Source: a virus | Reading direction: 5' to 3' (one strand) | DNA length: 18,258 nt | Virus genome (UHGV): UHGV-0272440 | Part shown: positions 153 through 16,878 of the stretch, one piece after another | How positions within the stretch are numbered: the first letter of the stretch is position 1 | Layout of the letters: each line of letters opens with the position of its first letter | The notes under the pieces: generated by a model | What the model was told of the DNA's origin: nothing | Seen by the model: the letters and a program-made list of their open reading frames with translations, nothing else | The model's database searches: none | Translations under genes and position numbers: made by a program

Positions 153-1202
153 TCAAACGATTAAATCCTGAACTTCCCTGACTGTCTGCTCAAAACGTCC
201 GGTCTCCAGCTCAACACCAATTGCACGACGCCCAAGCGCCATAGCCGCCTTTATGGTTGAGCCAGAACCCATGAAGAAATCCGCCACCATGTCACCAGGA
301 CGACTGCTCGCGCTGATTATCTGCTGCAGCATTTCTGCCGGTTTTTCGCACGGATGTTTCCCGGGATAGAACTGCACCGGTTTATGTGTCCACACATCCG
401 TGTACGGCACCTGCGCCGTCACACCAAAATACCGCCGCAGATGCTTATATTCACTCTGCAGCTCCACATACTGCCGGTTCAGTGACGTATACGTATCCAC
501 CAGCTGGTGGTGGGGCTTTTCCAGTTCACCGCGCTGATGTTTCTCTTCTGCCACCCGGGCAAACAGCGACTGTAATTTCAGATAATCGCTTTCGTTCGGC
601 AACTGCCACTGACTGGCACTGAACCAGTGCGACACCATGTTTTTCTTTCCTGTGGCATCTGCAATCTGTTTTGCCGTTATCCCCAGGGCAGCGCGCGCAT
701 CACGAAAGTAAGCAATCAGCGGGGTCATCACATGCTGTTTCAGTTCCCTGCCCTTCGCCTCATACCCGGCATCTTTCGGACGATACGGCCCCTGATAATG
801 TTCCGCGAACAGAATGCGCTCTGTGGCGGGGAAATACGCCCGCAGGCTTTCCTTGTTGCATCCGTTCCAGCGTCCGGACGGCTTCGCCCAGATAATATGG
901 TTCAGCACACTGAAGCGTTCACGCATCATGATTTCGATATCAGATGCCAGGCGATGTCCACAGAACAGGTAAAGGCTTCCTGCAGGTTTTAACACCCGCC
1001 AGAACTGCGCCAGACAGTGGTCCAGCCACTTAAGGTAATCTTCGTCCCCTTTCCACTGATTGTCCCAGCCGTTGGGTTTCACCTTGAAGTACGGCGGATC
1101 GGTAACAATCAGGTCAATGGAATCATCAGGCAGGGACTGAATAAAATGCAGGCAATCAGCGTTGATTAAATCAACACTGTTTATTTTCACAGTGTTTTTC
1201 AT
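153..1202 (-). CDS. DNA methyltransferase, N6-adenine/N4-cytosine family (DPPY motif), orphan
   Basis: 349-aa ORF with motif IV 'IDLIVTDPPYF' near the N-terminus and an AdoMet-binding 'FFMGSGST' motif near the C-terminus (beta-class arrangement). ATG start at 1202. No restriction endonuclease partner nearby. Confidence 0.8.
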   Translation of the reverse strand: MKNTVKINSVDLINADCLHFIQSLPDDSIDLIVTDPPYFKVKPNGWDNQWKGDEDYLKWLDHCLAQFWRVLKPAGSLYLFCGHRLASDIEIMMRERFSVLNHIIWAKPSGRWNGCNKESLRAYFPATERILFAEHYQGPYRPKDAGYEAKGRELKQHVMTPLIAYFRDARAALGITAKQIADATGKKNMVSHWFSASQWQLPNESDYLKLQSLFARVAEEKHQRGELEKPHHQLVDTYTSLNRQYVELQSEYKHLRRYFGVTAQVPYTDVWTHKPVQFYPGKHPCEKPAEMLQQIISASSRPGDMVADFFMGSGSTIKAAMALGRRAIGVELETGRFEQTVREVQDLIV

Positions 1203-1352: not shown

Positions 1353-1580
1353 TTACTGGCAGCGTCTGAATTTATTCCCGTACCCGCCGTTATCCTTCGC
1401 CAGACCCGCCAGAACTAACTGAGTCAGTATTAACTGGCACCGGGCTTCGCTTACTCCGGTAGTTCTCGTCATCATGCGTGGCGTTACCCACTTGTCAGCA
1501 GGTAAGAAATGAAGGACTGCGGCGGCGGTTTCTGTCATATCTTGCTGTTTTAGCATGTCTTTTTCCCTTCTTGTTAACAT
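1353..1580 (-). CDS. hypothetical small protein (75 aa) downstream of the late terminator
   Basis: ORF from ATG at 1580; no clear Shine-Dalgarno at the first ATG (a better one precedes the internal Met9). No recognisable family. Sits between tR' and the methyltransferase. Confidence 0.3.
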   Translation of the reverse strand: MLTRREKDMLKQQDMTETAAAVLHFLPADKWVTPRMMTRTTGVSEARCQLILTQLVLAGLAKDNGGYGNKFRRCQ

Positions 1581-1809: not shown

Positions 1810-2562
1810 TTATCTTGTCACCTTTCTCAATTGTATCTCTGCATATGCTTCTTCCTGCCAGCACTTTGTAACCAGTTTATCAATGACATCTGCATATCCT
1901 TTGTACCACTGATAATCCGTCAGGTCTGGTACCAGCTTCTGGACATGAAGCCGCGCCAGTGTGGTTGGTAAACGGCTAAACCGGTTTCCATTGCAACGCC
2001 CACAAACCTTATAAACAGGCGTGCCATGAAGCCGGGTTCTTTTTTCATCCAGGACAATACCTTTACCCTTACACCCTCTGCACGCTGTGCTGACTTCTCC
2101 CTTACCATGACAATGCTGACACAGTTCCTTCACCCACTCTTCCTTGATAACAGATTCCCCGCTTCTGGAGTGTTTCACCACTTCGCGCAATACATTATGA
2201 AATCCAGTACCAGCACAATGCTCACAGCGAGCCTTACTTGCCGCAGACCTGGAATAATCAGCAAAGGCAAAGTTCACAAGGTAAGGGATGATCTGTAACC
2301 GGGTTTCTTCACTCAATTTGTTCAATGTCGGGTTATCCAGTGCCATCGCGTAATTGAGCAGACCTTCAATCGCAAACTGAGGATCCTGAACACCAACTTT
2401 TGCCAGGAATAAGGCAAACCCAAGCGGTGCTTTCGACTGCACCATACCCTGCGCAGCCATTACATCCGTAATTGTTAAACCACCAGAGCCTGTCGCCGGT
2501 GCGTCATCGCTCAATTTTGGAGATTTCGGGGAGTAATATTTCGGTAAGGCTTCAAGGTTCAT
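1810..2562 (-). CDS. Late-gene antitermination protein Q (zinc-finger Q family, QuuQ/YdfT-like size)
   Basis: 250-aa ORF, ATG with GGAGA Shine-Dalgarno; four Cys pairs 'CEHCAGTG', 'CQHCHGKG', 'CRGCKGKG', 'CGRCNGN'; position immediately upstream of the pR'/tR' unit. Confidence 0.7.
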   Translation of the reverse strand: MNLEALPKYYSPKSPKLSDDAPATGSGGLTITDVMAAQGMVQSKAPLGFALFLAKVGVQDPQFAIEGLLNYAMALDNPTLNKLSEETRLQIIPYLVNFAFADYSRSAASKARCEHCAGTGFHNVLREVVKHSRSGESVIKEEWVKELCQHCHGKGEVSTACRGCKGKGIVLDEKRTRLHGTPVYKVCGRCNGNRFSRLPTTLARLHVQKLVPDLTDYQWYKGYADVIDKLVTKCWQEEAYAEIQLRKVTR

Positions 2563-4401: not shown

Positions 4402-4791
4402 TCAGGCGGCTGCACCCGCCGTTTTCTCGTACTTACTGATAGTGATCTCGACCTTCCCTTCCGGGATAACCGGTCCCCACTCCACCAGCATTCTTTTCAC
4501 CTGACTGTCGTCTTCCCACACACCCGCGTGGGTCAGGGCGTCAAACAGCGCCTTGTTATAGTTGTCCAGATCGCGGATCCGGTTATCTGGAGGAAACAAC
4601 ACGATCGCCACTGAAGCAGGTGCCGACGTTGGTTTCGGCAGGCGACGTAACTGCTCAACTATTGCTGCGCACGCCGCGCTCTGGAATTTTCGCCCCGCCG
4701 CGCTTATCAGACTCTTACCAGCAAACGCCCCTTTGTTGGGGTGTCGCCAGTACGTGTTCACGCTGGGCGGAAAAGGCAGGATCAGCTTCAT
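4402..4791 (-). CDS. rusA: Holliday junction resolvase RusA
   Basis: 129-aa ORF with the RusA hallmarks 'LPFPPSVNTYWR' and acidic catalytic cluster 'RRDLDNYNKALFDALTHAGVWEDDSQV'. Start overlaps the upstream stop (ATGA). Confidence 0.85.
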   Translation of the reverse strand: MKLILPFPPSVNTYWRHPNKGAFAGKSLISAAGRKFQSAACAAIVEQLRRLPKPTSAPASVAIVLFPPDNRIRDLDNYNKALFDALTHAGVWEDDSQVKRMLVEWGPVIPEGKVEITISKYEKTAGAAA

Positions 4792-5114
4792 ACTTTCAGG
4801 TCCCTCTCATGTAACCAGTGGGTTGCACGCAGCCTTGCGTTTTCCTCACCGGCAAGCAGTGCGCGGATAATCCCGACCGCCTCGCTGTCGTCGTCCTTCA
4901 CCGCGGTATGAAGCGTTATCCCCCGGGCCACGCCACGCTTTATCGTGATGACGCCTTTTTTCTCCAGTGCGCGAAGATGCTCCACCGCTGCATTCACTGA
5001 ACGGTATCCCAGCATGGTTGCCACCTCCTGATTGGTTGGCGGGAAGCCACGTTCTTTCTGATAAGAAATCAGCATATCCAGCACCTGCTGCTGGCATTGA
5101 GTTAACGTCGTCAT
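4788..5114 (-). CDS. LexA N-terminal DNA-binding-domain protein lacking the S24 peptidase domain
   Basis: 108 aa; aligns with the LexA winged-helix region: 'LTQCQQQVLDMLISYQKERGFPPTNQEVATMLGYRSVNAAVEHLRALEKKGVITIKRGVARGI' versus LexA '[63 protein letters not shown]'. No Ser/Lys catalytic domain follows. Confidence 0.7.
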   Translation of the reverse strand: MTTLTQCQQQVLDMLISYQKERGFPPTNQEVATMLGYRSVNAAVEHLRALEKKGVITIKRGVARGITLHTAVKDDDSEAVGIIRALLAGEENARLRATHWLHERDLKV

Positions 5115-5764
5115 GCCGCCATCTCCCTGACCAGTTTTTCCGCCTGCTGGCGAACCTGCGCCAGAAACGCCTCACCACATGCCTCAAGTTCATCGCGCCC
5201 GATGTAGCTGATTGCCGGTCCCTTCCAGGTCTTGTCAAAAACAGCAATAGCACCAGCGAAAAAAGCTCCTGTCGGTACCTGCTTCTCGTCTTTCGGGATA
5301 AACCAGACAGGCAGTTCAAAACCAATACGCCCGCGAATAAAAGCAATATGATCTGCATCTTCCGGCCACCACACTTCGCTGGTGGCAGCTTTGATCAGGA
5401 AAACATAGCGCCCGCCCTTATCACGCATGGCACTGGCATGTTTCATGATGTAACGCATGCCGGTGATGTATTGCCCCTCATGCTGACTGGCGCGGCTGTA
5501 TGGGGGATTACCAAAGGCAGCACCTTTAAGCTCCGCAAGACGTTCTGACCAGTCATGCGCAAGCGCGTTGTCTTCCGCCGTGTAATACGCGGCACATTTG
5601 GCGTTATCACCGTCAGTGAACAGATCCAGAACAAACGGGCCAAACAGGGTGTTAATTCCCCAGAAAATGTTGTCCGGCGTGCGCCACTGATCGCCCACTT
5701 CCTTCAGTTCATGGGCTGGTTTGTTCCGCAGTTCCACCAGCGCCTGGCAATATTTATTACTCAT
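5111..5764 (-). CDS. Phage N6-adenine DNA methyltransferase (Dam-type, NPPY motif), orphan
   Basis: Contains 'WRTP' and 'FGNPPYS' motifs typical of the phage Dam family. Start set at the ATG at 5764, which overlaps the upstream stop (TAATG), rather than the ORF-track start at 5797. Confidence 0.8.
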   Translation of the reverse strand: MSNKYCQALVELRNKPAHELKEVGDQWRTPDNIFWGINTLFGPFVLDLFTDGDNAKCAAYYTAEDNALAHDWSERLAELKGAAFGNPPYSRASQHEGQYITGMRYIMKHASAMRDKGGRYVFLIKAATSEVWWPEDADHIAFIRGRIGFELPVWFIPKDEKQVPTGAFFAGAIAVFDKTWKGPAISYIGRDELEACGEAFLAQVRQQAEKLVREMAA

Positions 5765-6252
5765 TAAGCCCCCACGTAATTCCCTGACAGATACCACTCT
5801 TCACCCGATGCAGCGCGCTTGCTGCTTTTCCGTAAGCACCGCTCACGACGCGCCAGAAAATTGTTTCGTTCTGGCTGGGAGTGGCTTTCACGGAATGCCG
5901 CCATCCACACGGTTGCAGCACGACGGTATAAGCCCCTGGACTCCAGTTCTTCCGCCTGACGGGTCAGGCACAAAATCACACGGGGATCGTTAGTGCCGAC
6001 ATAGAAATTGCGCACAGGTCTGGTTTCACGAACTGGTTGTGGTTCCGGTTCCTGCGCTCTCTCAGTCAGGCGCGGGAAATGTCTGCGTGTATCTCCTTCA
6101 CAACGGTGAGCCACACGCCCACTCTGACGTAACTTGCTTGCTGACTGCAGAACGCGCTGCCGTGAGTAACCTGCAAAAGCATCCGCAATGTCTCCGGAAG
6201 TACACCCCGGATGGGCTTCAATGAATTTCTGAACTTCATTCAAAATACTCAT
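5764..6252 (-). CDS. Hypothetical regulator, N-terminal winged-helix-like with possible PerC-like C-terminal motif; YfdN-like by size and position
   Basis: ORF of about 162 aa. ATG at 6252 preceded by AGGGGG; the GTG at 6258 overlaps the upstream stop. Motif 'ELESRGLYRRAATVWMAAF' is reminiscent of PerC/Pch regulators; recalled from memory, low certainty. Confidence 0.45.
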   Translation of the reverse strand: MSILNEVQKFIEAHPGCTSGDIADAFAGYSRQRVLQSASKLRQSGRVAHRCEGDTRRHFPRLTERAQEPEPQPVRETRPVRNFYVGTNDPRVILCLTRQAEELESRGLYRRAATVWMAAFRESHSQPERNNFLARRERCLRKSSKRAASGEEWYLSGNYVGA

Positions 6253-6254
6253 AA

Positions 6255-7247
6255 TCACCCCCTGAATCCTGCCGGGATCTGGCTGTAGTCCACGTTGTCG
6301 TAACTGGCTTTGAAGTACGGGTCTTCGCGTTTTTCTGTGTACGTGCTGACGGACGGCGATAAGCGCAGGGAAAGCTCATCCCATTTTTCCCGCAGCTTCG
6401 ACGGGCTGAGCACGTTACGGCACCAGAACGGATCGCGGCTGACGCGGCTGTACATCTCGCAGATTTGTTTGTGAGTACGCCCATCCTGTACACACATCAG
6501 GCGAATTTCGTTTGCCCAGGCTGTCCAGTTCGGTTCTTTAGGACGTACCACTTCGCCGTCACATTCGGCGGCCTGCTCGTACAGAGCGATGATTTTTTTC
6601 CAGAGCCACTGTGCGCAGGTCAAATCATCCTGCGTTCCCCACTGGCGCTTTTTAGGGCTGAATACAACCGCATCAGGATGGCGAGTTAAAAAATCCTGTT
6701 CAGCCATCTGCGTGTCCGGTTGCGAAGCGTCCGGACGAGAAGAGGTTTTATTCTCTGTAGTAATCTCTGTTGTATTCTCTGTAAGATCATTGGGCCATTT
6801 TGACCCGATGACAGCGTGTCGTTTTGAACCAATGGATCGTGTCATTTTGCGCTCATCCATCAGGTCACTTTGACCCGATGGAGAGGTGCATTTTGACCTG
6901 ATGGATTCGTTCACTTTGACCTCTTCTAAAAGCTCACTTTCATAGTTGATCGTGTAGAAGTTGGTCATGTCACGCTTCGATTTATTGAGTTGCTCGCGAC
7001 GCAAAACCCCAAGTGATTTCAGGCTTGCAAATGTGCGTTTCAGAGTGGACTCTGACCAGAACGGAAACTGCTCCAGCCACTGTTCTGTCGTGTTATAAAC
7101 CCAGCGAATTCCGCCATGCTCAGTGCCTGAATTCGTTTCATTCAGCCAGTAATGAAGCTGCTGCAACACAATTGCCTCATTCAGACCAATACGGCATGCA
7201 AGATCACGATTTATCACAATGGGCTGGGATGTCATTAACAGGCTCAT
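6255..7247 (-). CDS. Phage replication initiation protein (O-like functional analogue) containing ori iterons
   Basis: 330-aa ORF with GGAGG Shine-Dalgarno; N-terminal helix-turn-helix-like region; 6 to 7 direct repeats embedded in the coding sequence (lambda O/ori arrangement). The called product is positional and architectural, not a homology match. Confidence 0.6.
   Translation of the reverse strand: MSLLMTSQPIVINRDLACRIGLNEAIVLQQLHYWLNETNSGTEHGGIRWVYNTTEQWLEQFPFWSESTLKRTFASLKSLGVLRREQLNKSKRDMTNFYTINYESELLEEVKVNESIRSKCTSPSGQSDLMDERKMTRSIGSKRHAVIGSKWPNDLTENTTEITTENKTSSRPDASQPDTQMAEQDFLTRHPDAVVFSPKKRQWGTQDDLTCAQWLWKKIIALYEQAAECDGEVVRPKEPNWTAWANEIRLMCVQDGRTHKQICEMYSRVSRDPFWCRNVLSPSKLREKWDELSLRLSPSVSTYTEKREDPYFKASYDNVDYSQIPAGFRG
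6795..6945. repeat. Iteron array (candidate replication origin) inside the initiator gene
   Basis: Direct repeats with consensus about CAYTTTGACCYGATGG: 'ccattttgacccgatg' (6795..6810), 'tcactttgacccgatgg' (6865..6881), 'gcattttgacctgatgg' (6888..6904), 'tcactttgacctc' (6911..6923), plus degenerate copies near 6819..6835, 6842..6858 and 6933..6945. Confidence 0.75.
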
Positions 7248-7468
7248 GCCGCACCTCCGAGATGCTTCATGTTTTTTCCGGAGCGAAAGGCTATAAGCGG
7301 CATACTGACGCGGTAATTACGGCCCAGCGGTTCACAAATCACCTTCTGGCATTCACGGTCAACCAGGCTAACACGTAGAACATGCCCTGCAGGCGTGGTG
7401 TACCACTGACCCGGACGAGGACAACGGAAAGTATGATTGGTAAACCGTTTGAAAATATTCCGGATCAT
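7244..7468 (-). CDS. hypothetical small protein (74 aa), translationally coupled on both sides
   Basis: ATG at 7468 overlaps the upstream stop (ATGA) and its own stop overlaps the initiator ATG (ATGA). No recognisable family. Confidence 0.4.
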   Translation of the reverse strand: MIRNIFKRFTNHTFRCPRPGQWYTTPAGHVLRVSLVDRECQKVICEPLGRNYRVSMPLIAFRSGKNMKHLGGAA

Positions 7469-8616
7469 TTGCGCCCCCTTACCTCTGAAGGGTTCAGCGA
7501 CAAATTTATGAGACTGGCCAGTAGCGCCGCGTCGTTGATGCGGTCATACAGACTTACAGCCAGCGGGGATTCGGCTTTTGCCAACATGGGATAAAGCTGC
7601 TGCAGCCAGACCTGATGAATTGATGAAATGTAGGAATAGAGAACGCTGGCGTTATGTGCAACGTCGCTCGGTACAGAGGGCTTTGAAAGCTGTTTCTCCA
7701 TCTGGTTAAAGGCATTGATGTATGCCTCTTTGAACTGGGCAGCACGTTTACCCGTGAAACCCATAGCAAGAAACGCAAAACCGTCGCGTGTGATTTGGTA
7801 GCAAGGAAGTTTGCGACCTGTGCAATCAGTGTAATCACTCACCGAAAAATTGCGGGCAGTGAATGATGCTGAGCATTCAAGCGTGCGGATCTTTTTCAGT
7901 ACATCGTCATGACGTTTAGAGAAGAAGTCAGCAACAGCCAAAGAAGATGTAACAGCCTGACCATCAACGATGGCAATTTCAGGTTGAGAGATGGTTGGGA
8001 GAGTAGTCATGGTGACAGCCCCGGTAGTCAGTTTTTTAGAAAACTCACCACATGGGACGCCAATCACAGAGGTGGTGAGACGTACAGGGTTGGCGTTACC
8101 GGAGACTACCGAACCCGGCCCGACCGAAGTCGGCCCTGTACGCCACACCATAATTTGGGCGTAGCAATGCTCATGACACGAAAAAACCGCATGAGCGCGG
8201 TTATGCTCAGTAATCAATTTCAGGACGCCAATCCCGGCACCCGCTTTATAAGGTGCCTGAACAGTGTAACGTCCCGGAATGGCAGAATCAATGTGCTGGT
8301 GGTCCTTCACACTCAACAAAATCACGCCTGAATTTCCACAAAGGACTAAAGCACTCATGCGGGTAGTCTTTGCGAAGATAGATAACGCGCTGTGTTTCTG
8401 GCTCCCAACGAATAACATGAACATAAAGTCCTCTTCCGTCACGAAACCAGCGGTTAAGTTCCTGCACAACTCGCCCCCCACAGTCAGGTAAAGTTCTCTG
8501 TGGTTACTTACAGCCAGGTGATTTGGTAATCTGCATTCATGCCGTAACAACAGGTGTGCAGCGACACTGACCACCAGCTGTTGCGACAAACGGTTATTTG
8601 CCGTTAAACTGTTCAT
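7465..8616 (-). CDS. Rha-domain phage regulatory protein with an uncharacterised N-terminal region of about 200 aa
   Basis: C-terminal half ('IAIVDGQAVTSSLAVADFFSKRHDDVLKKIRTLE...YQITRDGFAFLAMGFTGKRAAQFKEAYINAFNQMEKQL') matches the Rha/phage-regulatory domain. The ATG at 8616 overlaps the upstream stop (ATGA) with GGAGA upstream. The internal ATG at 8010 is an alternative start that would give a roughly 180-aa Rha protein. Confidence 0.55.
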   Translation of the reverse strand: MNSLTANNRLSQQLVVSVAAHLLLRHECRLPNHLAVSNHRELYLTVGGELCRNLTAGFVTEEDFMFMLFVGSQKHSALSIFAKTTRMSALVLCGNSGVILLSVKDHQHIDSAIPGRYTVQAPYKAGAGIGVLKLITEHNRAHAVFSCHEHCYAQIMVWRTGPTSVGPGSVVSGNANPVRLTTSVIGVPCGEFSKKLTTGAVTMTTLPTISQPEIAIVDGQAVTSSLAVADFFSKRHDDVLKKIRTLECSASFTARNFSVSDYTDCTGRKLPCYQITRDGFAFLAMGFTGKRAAQFKEAYINAFNQMEKQLSKPSVPSDVAHNASVLYSYISSIHQVWLQQLYPMLAKAESPLAVSLYDRINDAALLASLINLSLNPSEVRGRK

Positions 8617-9164
8617 GCGTTAGTTTCTCCACAGACACAAAACGCCACGACGCCCGGAGCTGCACACTCGCGGGCGTCACTCTTTTCTGGAGCGCAGAAA
8701 ATTTTGTAGACCAGTGCCGCATGCTCCTGGAGCTTCGAAATTGACAGATACAATTCATCATTAATTGCTGTCTGCTCGTGTGGCTCCACTACCCCATCTT
8801 CGATTGCCGAACGAATCTGCTTTGAGTAACTCCCGATCTGTTCGATGACTTCCAGCAGGCGCTGGTTTATATCTGCGTTCTCTACTTCCTCAATTTCAGG
8901 AAGCGATACAAACACCCCACCAGCAGACTGTGCGACAGCATCCGCAATGTAGTGAGTGCCAGCAGCACGCTGTAAAATCATTGCCCATCCCAGCGGGAAA
9001 ATCTGATCGCCATCTGCACGAAGGCGGTTGAATAAAGCGTTCTCTGTAACATCCAGCCACTCAGCAGCTTCAGCGTAACCCCCTGGCAACGCCGCGATGG
9101 TTTTTCTGACAGCTTTCACGTACCACTCAGGCTGTTTTTCCACTTTCCAGTGATGATTACCCAC
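8613..9164 (-). CDS. Putative CII-like/YdaT-family regulatory protein
   Basis: 183-aa ORF immediately downstream of cro. GTG start with strong AGGAGG Shine-Dalgarno 6 nt upstream. Family assignment is from position and recollection of YdaT-like proteins following cro-like genes; not verified. Confidence 0.4.
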   Translation of the reverse strand: MGNHHWKVEKQPEWYVKAVRKTIAALPGGYAEAAEWLDVTENALFNRLRADGDQIFPLGWAMILQRAAGTHYIADAVAQSAGGVFVSLPEIEEVENADINQRLLEVIEQIGSYSKQIRSAIEDGVVEPHEQTAINDELYLSISKLQEHAALVYKIFCAPEKSDARECAAPGVVAFCVCGETNA

Positions 9165-9417
9165 GGCTTACCTCCTGTTCCTGTGGTTTAAACCCATTCT
9201 GGTTTTGGCTAGATTGAAAACGTGCCGGATAAAGAATCTGCATTTCGCTGATTTCACCCTTAAAAAAATTGGCCAGACGTTCTGCAAGATCGATAGATGG
9301 AATTTGTTCCAGTCTTTCAATACGACTCAGCGTCGCTGGATTGACCTGAACGCCAGCAGCAACATGCTGCAAAGTAAATCCGTGCGCCTTACGCACATTC
9401 CGTAATGGTGATTGCAT
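9157..9417 (-). CDS. Cro-like helix-turn-helix transcriptional regulator
   Basis: 86 aa; XRE-type HTH 'FTLQHVAAGVQVNPATLSRIERLEQIPSIDLAERLANFF'; GGAGGT Shine-Dalgarno; divergent from the repressor gene. Confidence 0.7.
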   Translation of the reverse strand: MQSPLRNVRKAHGFTLQHVAAGVQVNPATLSRIERLEQIPSIDLAERLANFFKGEISEMQILYPARFQSSQNQNGFKPQEQEVSRG

Positions 9418-9514: not shown

Positions 9515-10207
9515 ATGAACATAGGAAACCGAGTCAGACAACTTCGCCAGGCGAAGAACATGAAAATCGCCGATCTCGCTGAAGCAATAGGAGTGGATGC
9601 GGCGAATATCTCACGCCTGGAAACAGGTAAGCAGAAACAATTCACTGAACAAGCCCTGAGTAATATTGCCAAGAGCTTAGGTGTTGATATTGCTGATCTC
9701 TTTACCTCAGACTTCAAAAGTAATACTGTATGTAAAAACAGTATTAGTGAGGATGTTGCGCAGGTGAAGGATGTATTCCGTATTGAAATGCTGGATGTCA
9801 GTGCCAGTGCGGGAAATGGCCTTATCCAGGGCGGTGATGTCATTGATGTGATTCATGCCATTGAATACAGAACTGATAATGCTGTATCGATGTTTGGTGG
9901 ACGGCCAGCCAATCACATTAAAGTTATCAACGTTCGTGGGGACAGTATGTGTCCAACCATTGAGCCAGGAGATCTCATCTTCGTTGATGTCAGTATCAAT
10001 CAGTTTGATGGAGATGGTATCTATGTATTTGGTTTTGATGATAAAATTTATGTCAAACGACTGCAAATGATACCTGACAAACTACTGGTGATTTCTGATA
10101 ACCAGATTTACCGTGAATGGGGAATTACCAGCGAAAATGAACACCGGTTTATGGTCTTTGGAAAGGTCTTAATCAGCCAGTCACAAACCATTAAGCGACA
10201 CAATTAA
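9515..10207 (+). CDS. CI-type prophage repressor (HTH plus S24 LexA-like autopeptidase domain)
   Basis: 230 aa; N-terminal HTH 'MKIADLAEAIGVDAANISRLETGK'; C-terminal S24 motifs 'VRGDSMCPTIEPGDLIFVD' (Ser nucleophile) and 'YVKRL' (Lys). Confidence 0.85.
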   Translation: MNIGNRVRQLRQAKNMKIADLAEAIGVDAANISRLETGKQKQFTEQALSNIAKSLGVDIADLFTSDFKSNTVCKNSISEDVAQVKDVFRIEMLDVSASAGNGLIQGGDVIDVIHAIEYRTDNAVSMFGGRPANHIKVINVRGDSMCPTIEPGDLIFVDVSINQFDGDGIYVFGFDDKIYVKRLQMIPDKLLVISDNQIYREWGITSENEHRFMVFGKVLISQSQTIKRHN

Positions 10208-15552: not shown

Positions 15553-15588
15553 TTTTCCCGGGTGCAGCCGGTTTTGATGGAGAAAATT

Positions 15589-15861
15589 ATGAACACCTTG
15601 TTTTTACTGATGGCTGAATTCAATACCCCAAACATTGAGCTGTCAGCTGTATGCCAAAAGTATTTCGGTATGAGCCCTAACACAGCAGAAGCGAAAGCAA
15701 ATGCATGCCAGTTGCCGATCCCGACTTATCGTGTTGGTACATCACAGAAAGCAAAGCGCTGCATCAACATTCAGGATCTTGCTGAATATATAGATAAACG
15801 GCGTGAAGAAGGCAGAATTGAATGGGAGAGGGTAAGAACAAATAGGAAAATAAATAACTAA
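15589..15861 (+). CDS. small DNA-binding protein, excisionase-like/PrtN-like
   Basis: 90 aa from the ATG at 15589 (GGAGA Shine-Dalgarno). Last gene of the early-left operon, the usual xis position. Similarity to PrtN-type proteins is from memory. Confidence 0.45.
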   Translation: MNTLFLLMAEFNTPNIELSAVCQKYFGMSPNTAEAKANACQLPIPTYRVGTSQKAKRCINIQDLAEYIDKRREEGRIEWERVRTNRKINN

Positions 15862-15873
15862 TCTCACAAAAAA

Positions 15874-15895
15874 CCCGCTTCGGCGGGTTAGTTTT
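15874..15895. terminator. Bidirectional Rho-independent terminator between convergent genes
   Basis: Stem CCCGC (15874..15878), loop TTCG, stem GCGGG (15883..15887), flanked by an A-run upstream (U-run on the minus strand) and TTAGTTTT downstream. Confidence 0.7.
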
Positions 15896-16322
15896 CATCT
15901 TTATAATTCTGGGCAATTCGCGCCAGATAGCTCATCACATCATGTTTTCTTGCTTTTTCATGTGCATCGGGATACATAATAGCAATGAGTGAATATTTAT
16001 TCTCATAAAGCTCACCTTGGACATACACAAGACAAGCATCATTATCAGGATCACCTTTCTTGCAGACCCTATCCGGTTGTGGAAGTTTCTCGGGAAACTT
16101 GTTTGGCGGTAGACAAAGATGGATATGCATCAACCCAGCCCGAAAAGCACCATAAGGCTGAGTATACGCAACGTCCCTACCGAAATAATGCGGAAGCTCA
16201 CCGGTTGCTTTGTATCTCTTGAAATCATCAATGATAGAAGACTCTAGCTCCGGGAATTTGAGAAAAATTTCATCAAAAAATTCAGCTCTAGTTTCTGGAT
16301 TAATAGAGACTTCTAGATGCAT
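15888..16322 (-). CDS. YafO-family toxin-like protein (ribosome-dependent mRNA interferase family)
   Basis: 144 aa; blocks parallel to E. coli YafO as recalled: 'HYFGRDVAYTQPY' vs 'DIFGRDALYDDSF', 'HIHLC' vs 'HIHLA', 'ACLVYVQG' vs 'AHLVYCQG', 'SLIAIMYPDAHEKAR' vs 'LLIAILKPEPHKLAR'. Lies in AT-rich DNA. Confidence 0.6.
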   Translation of the reverse strand: MHLEVSINPETRAEFFDEIFLKFPELESSIIDDFKRYKATGELPHYFGRDVAYTQPYGAFRAGLMHIHLCLPPNKFPEKLPQPDRVCKKGDPDNDACLVYVQGELYENKYSLIAIMYPDAHEKARKHDVMSYLARIAQNYKDEN

Positions 16323-16338: not shown

Positions 16339-16878
16339 TTAGTGAAATTGCATCGATTTTAGCTTATTTGATGTGTGACTAGCTAGTGCTGCAATTCCAG
16401 CAAGATCCGCGCGCCCGCTAAAAGTAACAGTTTCTTTAAATATGCTCTTTATGTAATTGTTAAGGCGAGTGACAGATGAGCGAGCTTTAGCAATATGACG
16501 CCAGTAAACCTTCAGTTCTGACCTGATAAATTCAGGCAGAGGCGATTCAATTGTACGCTTCACTTCTTCTTCAAAAGCACGCAGGAACATTTCGCATGCC
16601 TCTGTCGTATCTGTCCCGTTTTTGGAAACAAACTCGCGAGCATCTTGGCTATTAAGATCAATCAAACAGATATAGTAGTCATCTGCTGCAATTGTTAACT
16701 TTTGCAAGATCTCCTTACCCTCTTCCATTTTGCGTGAGAATTCCTCAACAGAAGGAGAGTACTCAAAAGGTTTAGCAATCACAGGGGCTGGCTGGATGAT
16801 GAACTCCTGCGCCATAGCAGCAGGACAAGCCAGAGGCCCGCACAATGCAGCAAAAGTAATGGCGTTAAACGGATTCAT
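16339..16878 (-). CDS. hypothetical protein with hydrophobic N-terminus (possible signal peptide), upstream partner of the YafO-like gene
   Basis: 179 aa; ATG with GAGGT Shine-Dalgarno; N-terminus 'MNPFNAITFAALCGPLACPAAMAQE' is hydrophobic with an AxA-like site but no basic n-region. No resemblance to YafN/Phd-type antitoxins. Confidence 0.5.
   Translation of the reverse strand: MNPFNAITFAALCGPLACPAAMAQEFIIQPAPVIAKPFEYSPSVEEFSRKMEEGKEILQKLTIAADDYYICLIDLNSQDAREFVSKNGTDTTEACEMFLRAFEEEVKRTIESPLPEFIRSELKVYWRHIAKARSSVTRLNNYIKSIFKETVTFSGRADLAGIAALASHTSNKLKSMQFH

Follow-up and report, generated by a model that had tools for sequence, protein, structure and literature searches.

Positions 4788 to 5114 (minus strand) of UHGV virus genome UHGV-0272440, a stretch of 18,258 nucleotides that was analysed at its full length and is referred to below as the window, encode a 108-residue protein that carries the DNA-binding domain of LexA and lacks its autocleavage domain. 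This open reading frame (ORF) is a genuine stand-alone gene, not a truncated copy of lexA, and its product combines a LexA-type winged helix-turn-helix with a C-terminal tail that is specific to the family. We tentatively propose a LexA-type repressor that is dimerised by its tail, is insensitive to RecA, and acts on SOS-box-like operators during lytic growth. The SOS response governs mutagenesis, the induction of prophages and of Shiga toxin (Stx), and antibiotic tolerance, and is switched on by the RecA-stimulated self-cleavage of LexA. An uncleavable phage look-alike of LexA could reset this switch from within the induced cell.

A LexA-type winged helix without the protease domain

The profile search called for by the initial annotation of this stretch returned a full-length match to LexA_DNA_bind (PF01726), profile positions 1–65 of 65 being aligned with residues 1–65 of the protein (E-value of 2.9e-19; 69 bits for a Pfam cut-off of 23.7 bits). 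The closest sequence match in the PDB was the DNA-binding domain of E. coli LexA (1lea; E-value of 6.2e-16). The alignment to 1lea extended from residue 2 to residue 70 with zero gaps, and LexA numbering is therefore directly usable for the phage protein. Identity to residues 1–70 of E. coli LexA is about 50%. The AlphaFold2 model (mean per-residue confidence score, pLDDT, of 78.7) shows the three helices of LexA, predicted at residues 6–22, 28–35, and 40–52, the last of which is the recognition helix, and its two-stranded wing (residues 56–59 and 65–68). Foldseek superposed this model on DNA-bound LexA (3jso) with a root-mean-square deviation of 1.4 Å over 68 residues (50% identity). The residue-by-residue correspondence with the winged helix of LexA, first noticed by inspection of the sequence, was thus confirmed both by alignment and by structural superposition.

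Peptidase_S24 (PF00717), which spans residues 77–193 of E. coli LexA, was not found in the 108-residue protein by the Pfam search, in agreement with the initial annotation. The NCBIfam equivalog model for lexA (TIGR00498) scored 70.6 bits, below its cut-off of 110.95, and was matched over model positions 1–91 of 203 only. Both the S24 domain and a conserved cleavage site (see below) are missing, and the protein therefore does not qualify as a LexA repressor proper. The labels 'LexA repressor' and 'SOS-response repressor and protease LexA', borne by some deposited copies of the gene, are wrong because the protein contains no protease domain.

The DNA-binding domain had been described as encoded alone. 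This holds for the missing autocleavage domain, but the protein is not a bare domain since residues 71–108 form a conserved tail. This 38-residue extension is predicted to comprise two helices (residues 74–87 and 93–103), which were modelled with the highest confidence within the protein (block means of pLDDT of 87–88), and it is retained in relatives down to about 38% identity. L86, L87, A97, and L101 are invariant or nearly invariant in the family alignments. A profile of the tail alone gave zero sequence matches in the PDB, LexA included, at E-values up to 10. Foldseek matches spanning most of the model were weak and corresponded to dimeric winged-helix regulators (BlaI-like, MntR, MarR, and Rrf2) with helical dimerisation regions. 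We infer that the tail is a dimerisation or partner-binding element replacing the S24 domain; it probably makes the protein work as a dimer.

Residues A88-G89 of the window protein align opposite the cleavage site of LexA (A84-G85), a pairwise HMMER alignment extends to LexA residue 86, and MAFFT sets part of the tail opposite the region of Ser119. The tail was nevertheless rejected as a relic of the cleavage-site region: relatives harbor AN, VG, TR, ER, DD, or other pairs at the Ala-Gly position, the region of A88-G89 is predicted to be helical, and the tail profile misses LexA. Any resemblance of the tail to the LexA hinge region is vestigial at most.

A conserved family in the nin region of lambdoid phages

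The protein matched PHROG 362 (phrog_362) end to end (residues 1–108 aligned with positions 1–106 of 106; E-value of 3.8e-59). Its equivalents are mEp460_046, orf42 of SfV, and pham 237 of the Stx phages, and it is named 'LexA family transcriptional regulator' by RefSeq in E. coli genomes. Many deposited phages and E. coli prophages match it with 97–100% identity. The 327-nucleotide gene was detected in 2233 of the 5426 complete E. coli genomes (41%), with up to four copies per genome. The 1.6-kb stretch encompassing the genes for a Dam-type methyltransferase, the LexA-like protein, and the resolvase RusA was 95–99% identical in 50 of the 51 matching deposited phage records. Phages carrying this stretch include SfV, SfII, mEp460 (in which the gene is annotated 'LexA DNA binding domain protein'), phi1720a-02, and Stx2a- and Stx2c-converting phages. 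Phage phi1720a-02 is the 'bully phage' that suppresses co-resident prophages; this suppression was not retained as an effect of the LexA-like gene, since the paper, which did not look at that gene, credits Cro alone.

Related loci were collected from 275 viral contigs with six queries. The first profile scan gave near-identical loci only, and the diversity was obtained with five separate queries. The gene was located inside the nin region in all 275 loci. The next gene encoded RusA, divergent forms included, in 215 of the 269 loci that were not truncated by the end of a contig; the rest (about 20%) had DUF968 or an unrelated gene in this place. A Dam homologue was present upstream, with the same four-nucleotide overlap, in 98 related viral loci. 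The nin-region position proposed in the initial annotation also agrees with the location of the gene between the replication genes and Q in the window and with the annotation of mEp460. Translational coupling to both neighbours had likewise been predicted, and both overlaps were found in the sequence: the TGA stop codon of the methyltransferase gene overlaps the ATG of the LexA-like gene (ATGA at 5111–5114), the stop codon of which overlaps the ATG of rusA (ATGA at 4788–4791). A Shine-Dalgarno sequence, GGAG, is present 8 nucleotides 5' of the ATG of the LexA-like ORF.

Close homologues are all about 106–108 residues long, and an exhaustive profile search recovered tail-bearing relatives of 106–135 residues at about 38–49% identity. 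The ratio of nonsynonymous to synonymous substitutions (dN/dS), calculated by the method of Nei and Gojobori, was 0.20 for residues 1–70 and 0.19 for the tail among 68 sequences of one clade, and 0.02 for the N-terminal domain and 0.25 for the tail among 34 sequences of the clade containing the window protein. Both halves of the protein are under purifying selection. A truncated pseudogene was ruled out by the dN/dS values of about 0.2, the conserved tail, and the uniform length of the homologues. The concern that homologues might always carry a fused peptidase, this copy being a truncation, was not borne out, the relatives being themselves stand-alone proteins.

Fused forms were also observed. 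One viral contig (L250, positions 6001–6702) harbors a 233-residue ORF that joins the LexA-like protein and RusA in a single reading frame, and proteins P0026, P0092, P0098, and P0119 of the database are fusions of Dam and LexA_DNA_bind. These Dam and RusA fusions probably arose from frameshifts, or from errors of gene calling, at the ATGA overlaps. The exhaustive profile search also returned proteins of 140–350 residues with two separate LexA_DNA_bind stretches (P0128, P0129, P0130, P0134, P0138, P0140, and others), in which the domain may occur in tandem as a 'covalent dimer'.

A full-text literature search identified no functional study of a LexA-like protein of the PHROG 362 type. In a comparative study of Stx phages, the gene appears only as a pham with pfam01726. 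The gene is already in databases, and the family joins gp6 of the Bacillus thuringiensis tectivirus GIL01 as a phage-encoded stand-alone LexA DNA-binding protein.

Conservation of the DNA-contact residues

The DNA-binding residues listed for E. coli LexA are S39, N41, A42, E44, and E45 (Knegtel et al., as cited in PMC13416735). The window protein keeps four of these five base-contact residues, position 44 being occupied by Val instead of Glu, and it also shares R64 with E. coli LexA. Conservation was computed over 164 distinct family proteins. S39 and N41 were invariant, A42 was present in 98% of the variants, and R64-G65-I66 of the wing were invariant. The domain appears to be built for a LexA-like half-site because S39, N41, A42, and R64 of the wing are kept; part of its specificity surface appears to have changed and to be still changing, as judged from the substitutions described below at positions 44 and 45.

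SOS boxes in the window and in related loci

The exact motif CTGT-N8-ACAG occurs three times in the window, for 0.19 occurrences expected, and none of 200 shuffles reached three. Spacings of 0 to 20 nucleotides between CTGT and ACAG were tested, and only N8 was enriched. In the LexA-DNA crystal structures of Zhang, Pigli and Rice, dating from 2010, both wings reportedly touch in one minor groove and thereby fix the 8-nucleotide spacing. The same spacing would therefore be favoured by the phage protein.

Two of the sites are candidate operators. The first, TACTGTATGTAAAAACAGTA, is a near-consensus SOS box inside cI, located in the linker between the helix-turn-helix and S24 domains. The exact motif was present inside 50 of the 65 CI homologues of related loci, mostly at the same offset and with different spacer sequences. 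A LexA site inside cI could act as a roadblock, or as a promoter, internal or antisense. As the binder of this box, host LexA is at least as good a candidate as the phage protein. Deposited phages with the cI allele of the window (at least 92% identity) all carry the LexA-like gene, leaving no negative control for the cI box. The second site, CACTGTGAAAATAAACAGTG, is located at the start of the methylase gene of the late region and was found at the same offset in 30 of 45 methylase homologues. The 34 nucleotides comprising the methylase ATG and the box are 97% conserved in Klebsiella phages whose methylase otherwise diverged, and phage phiP27 harbors CTGT-N8-CCAG at the start of its methylase gene. 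This pattern suggests that the phage methylase is LexA-controlled. The third exact site (8498–8513), in the 5' part of the Ash/Rha ORF, has a GC-richer spacer and poor flanks and is probably a chance match. The search of the window for likely binding sites, suggested in the initial annotation, provided three exact motifs, but host LexA alone can explain them.

In some close relatives, namely locus L072 (around positions 6765–6784) and nine other loci, RusA is followed by a terminator-like hairpin, an SOS box (TACTGTATTTATGAACAGTG), and the KilA-N gene. The KilA-N gene of the window overlaps rusA directly, without a box.

In one subclade, the LexA-like gene was found downstream of a terminator-like hairpin and a canonical SOS box overlapping a promoter in 24 of 31 distinct loci. 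The distance from the SOS box to the gene was 520–690 nucleotides, or about 1500 nucleotides where recA intervenes. The first gene encodes a DinI homologue (PF06183; E-value of 1e-21) or a phage RecA (PF00154; E-value of 2.6e-130; behind two tandem SOS boxes); next come a conserved ORF of about 80 residues, the LexA-like gene, and a 67-residue ORF. The location of a non-cleavable LexA-type protein within a LexA-repressed operon suggests possible negative feedback through the same box. The LexA-regulated dinI-antirepressor-irsA operon is known to trigger the induction of Gifsy prophages (PMC3121763), and the ORF of about 80 residues occupies the position of the Gifsy antirepressor.

A possible RecA-insensitive repressor of SOS-box promoters

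In the mechanism that we tentatively propose, the 38-residue helical hairpin that follows the winged helix-turn-helix (residues 1–70) would replace the S24 domain, which mediates both autocleavage and dimerisation. The hairpin would dimerise the protein, and the dimer would bind palindromic operators with half-sites resembling the CTGT of LexA. Because the protein is not cleavable, it would restore repression at SOS-box-type promoters at a time when RecA is activated and the cell has lost its LexA. Its candidate targets include the boxes that the phage itself carries, in cI and at the methylase gene, and, in relatives, the SOS-box promoter of their own dinI/recA-antirepressor-type operon. Host SOS genes and the LexA-controlled functions of rival elements are additional possible targets. 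The net effect would be to provide the phage with a damage-proof replacement of LexA, which would set the timing of SOS-controlled expression in lytic growth or shut it off. A precedent is offered by the Dmitrova system, as used in PMC7160566: the DNA-binding domain of LexA alone fails to repress a sulA-lacZ fusion, and represses it when fused to any dimerising protein. By the same principle, a natural LexA domain with a dimerising tail would therefore be an SOS-box repressor that cannot be removed by activated RecA. That SOS-box occupancy may be resistant to RecA had been put forward in the initial annotation; the idea is plausible but unproven.

Several observations weigh against this proposal. 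Position 44 was never Glu in the 164 variants (A, T, V, or F in 164/164), and position 45 was variable (E in 54%, D in 26%, A in 13%, and L in 7%, i.e. acidic in 80%), one closely related clade containing both E and A at this position. If the target were an invariant host SOS box, the recognition helix would be expected to be conserved. SOS boxes were enriched in the window and in three clades; in two large clades, the number of boxes within 6 kb of the gene was 0.17 and 0.14 per locus for 0.17 expected. In phage phiP27, no gene of the family was found in the 13 kb of the early and nin region that were examined (5–18 kb of the record), and the methylase box is kept. Host LexA therefore suffices to account for the boxes. 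Enrichment of the boxes, which does not discriminate between the LexA-like protein and host LexA, was rejected as proof of the target of the protein. LexA-controlled operons are known in Gifsy phages, and examination of the Gifsy-2 operon revealed no LexA-like gene at the equivalent position. Dimerisation by the tail is itself a prediction. Finally, gp6, the only characterised truncated LexA homologue of a phage, binds a different palindrome and is an activator.

Alternative roles of the LexA-like protein

This last precedent introduces the main alternative, which we regard as somewhat unlikely: the protein may be a phage-specific transcription factor that has drifted from SOS-box specificity and activates or represses phage promoters through its own operators. 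The truncated LexA homologue gp6 of GIL01 does so by binding to GaCACAnnTGTGtC and activating the late promoter P3 (PMC6182141). The loss of Glu44 and the variation of position 45 among E, D, A, and L, even within one clade, would correspond to a specificity that is diversifying, and the two clades lacking SOS-box enrichment near the gene and the weak, near-full-length Foldseek matches to dimeric winged-helix regulators fit the same role. Against it, the residues shared with LexA at positions 39, 41, 42, and 64 are kept family-wide, CTGT/ACAG pairs were enriched solely at the 8-nucleotide spacing of LexA-type sites, and the SOS box is the only evident operator upstream of the gene in the subclade with SOS-box operons. 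No alternative conserved palindrome was found, short of a systematic motif search. The gp6-type site CACA-N2-TGTG, the palindrome of GaCACAnnTGTGtC, was not found anywhere in the window, and a gp6-type operator was accordingly discarded there. If the protein does act on an operator of its own, the early operon of a very common type of prophage would encode a regulator that has so far gone unrecognised.

A more far-reaching version of SOS-box repression, which we consider unlikely, is that of a surrogate LexA that re-occupies SOS boxes after prophage induction and shuts down the host SOS regulon. Such a protein would also block LexA-controlled antirepressors, colicins, and co-resident rival prophages, and would feed back on the SOS-box operons of the phage. 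Where the gene has its own SOS-box promoter, re-occupation would take place as soon as host LexA is cleaved. If true, SOS control and the competition between prophages would include a widespread layer that has gone unrecognised, the gene being present in about 40% of complete E. coli genomes. The hosts of the gene include Stx2-converting phages.

We regard as improbable that the protein is not primarily a transcription factor and instead serves as a DNA-binding accessory of the recombination and repair genes linked to it (mainly RusA, in some loci RecA or DinI) or acts through protein contacts, for instance with the N-terminal domains of DNA-bound host LexA or with RecA filaments. The linkage to rusA is tight and often involves translational coupling, and it is maintained with divergent forms of RusA; DinI or RecA co-occurs with the gene in one subclade; a fused ORF exists in one contig; and the tail has no recognisable homologue. 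Linkage is the only basis of this assignment. In addition, RusA is absent downstream in about 20% of the loci, gene order in the nin region is mosaic and overlaps there are the norm, and a frameshift probably accounts for the fused ORF. The residues under strict conservation correspond to the DNA contacts of LexA, in keeping with sequence-specific binding, and no tested protein of the window matched a specific defence system of PADLOC. A role in anti-phage defence was discarded since the proteins of the window gave only generic methyltransferase models and two weak PADLOC matches, the LexA-like protein itself giving a weak and generic helix-turn-helix match.

Finally, a functionless remnant of a captured lexA lacking its 3' half is extremely unlikely, and effectively refuted by the low dN/dS of both halves: the HMMER alignment to LexA, which reaches about residue 90, and the Ala-Gly pair at the cleavage-site position suggest descent from a full-length lexA, but length and tail are conserved to about 38% identity, thousands of genomes carry an intact copy, the Ala-Gly pair is not kept by other family members, and the tail profile misses LexA.

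Genome context

The window covers the early region of an SfV/mEp460-type lambdoid prophage. The order of the genes on the minus strand is cro, a cII-like gene, a fused Ash/Rha gene, a replication gene, a PerC-family gene, the Dam-type methyltransferase gene, the LexA-like gene, rusA, a KilA-N gene, a DUF968 gene, Q, and the N6_N4 methylase gene. A simple scan of the minus strand for promoters and terminators found no promoter-like or strong terminator-like site between cro and the LexA-like gene. The latter gene, which lies within the densely packed early-right string of genes from cro to Q, is probably delayed-early because no promoter or strong terminator separates it from cro. As predicted from this arrangement, it should be expressed only after loss of the prophage repressor or on infection.

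Table 1. Location of the LexA-like gene, of its parts and neighbours, of candidate operators, and of example loci of the subclade with SOS-box operons. Positions are those of the window, except in the last three lines, which give positions in the loci named.
Feature	Position	Strand	Details
Stand-alone LexA-family DNA-binding gene	4788..5114	-	108 residues; ATG start; stop codon 4788-4790
LexA-type winged helix-turn-helix, codons 1-70	4905..5114	-	Pfam, PDB alignment, AlphaFold2 and Foldseek, conservation in 164 variants
Family-specific tail, codons 71-108	4791..4904	-	Short acidic linker and predicted helical hairpin
Phage Dam-type N6-adenine methyltransferase, upstream gene	5111..5764	-	PF05869, E-value 1.1e-45; PADLOC MTase_II 1-217/217
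RusA Holliday-junction resolvase, downstream gene	4402..4791	-	PF05866, E-value 9.7e-15
cro	9157-9417	-	
CI repressor with S24 domain	9515-10207	+	Divergent from cro
Q	1810-2562	-	
N6_N4 DNA methylase, late region	153-1202	-	
Candidate operator TACTGTATGTAAAAACAGTA, near-consensus SOS box inside cI	9724..9743	.	211 nucleotides after the cI ATG
Candidate operator CACTGTGAAAATAAACAGTG (minus strand), SOS box	1175..1194	.	10 nucleotides after the ATG of the methylase gene 153-1202 (-)
Subclade example locus L202	4536-4572 and 4598-5683		
Subclade example locus L189	5320-5592		
Subclade example locus L177	5559-5961		

Other features of the window were recorded. The fused Ash/Rha gene (7465–8616, minus strand) is a single ORF of 383 residues with both Ash (PF10554) and Rha (PF09669) domains. 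Directly upstream of the methylase gene, a 75-residue ORF (1353–1580, minus strand) encodes a homologue of phiP27 L23, whose annotation is that of a transcriptional regulator of the TrmB family; this product is a putative second small DNA-binding protein, encoded in the late region. At the other end of the window, beyond a PrtN/Xis-like gene (15562–15861), a homologue of YafO-type toxins (15888–16322, minus strand; PF13957, E-value of 1.9e-21) adjoins a 179-residue ORF without a Pfam match (16339–16878, minus strand), and the two may form a toxin-antitoxin pair at the end of the prophage.

Comparison with known systems

The window gene is a member of PHROG 362 from which it shows no difference; the gene order is the same, and members of that family are annotated by homology only. 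The comparison with E. coli LexA reveals the same winged helix-turn-helix (residues 1–70) without insertion or deletion, R64-G65-I66 being kept. In contrast to LexA, the phage protein has no S24 domain and no conserved Ala-Gly pair, Glu44 is replaced, and a 38-residue helical tail is present instead of the hinge and catalytic domain. It is also phage-encoded, within an early lytic operon, and is not autoregulated from an SOS box of its own, except possibly in one subclade.

Like the Dmitrova fusions, in which a LexA DNA-binding domain devoid of the cleavage domain is combined with a heterologous dimerising element and represses from the sulA SOS box (PMC7160566), the phage protein combines such a domain with a putative dimerising element. 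The fusions are artificial and contain authentic LexA residues 1–87, whereas the phage domain is 50% diverged and has lost Glu44.

The phage protein shares with gp6 of GIL01 a phage-encoded LexA DNA-binding domain without the cleavage domain. The latter is described as a winged helix-turn-helix whose wing is formed by a C-terminal extension of 14 residues, and which has no additional domain. In contrast, the PHROG 362 family has a conserved helical hairpin and is found in lambdoid phages of Enterobacterales, gp6 being an activator of a Gram-positive tectivirus that acts on a non-SOS palindrome.

The closest parallel in gene organization is the Gifsy operon (PMC3121763), which shares with the SOS-box subclade a terminator, an SOS-box promoter, dinI, a small ORF, a gene at the position of irsA, and a 67-residue ORF, the last resembling, by eye, the ORF that follows irsA in Gifsy-2. 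IrsA was not retained as the same protein despite its equivalent position, the Gifsy-2 homologue STM1020 being unrelated in sequence to the LexA-like protein. Unlike the copies in operons with the Gifsy layout, the copy present in the window sits in the early operon that extends from cro to Q.

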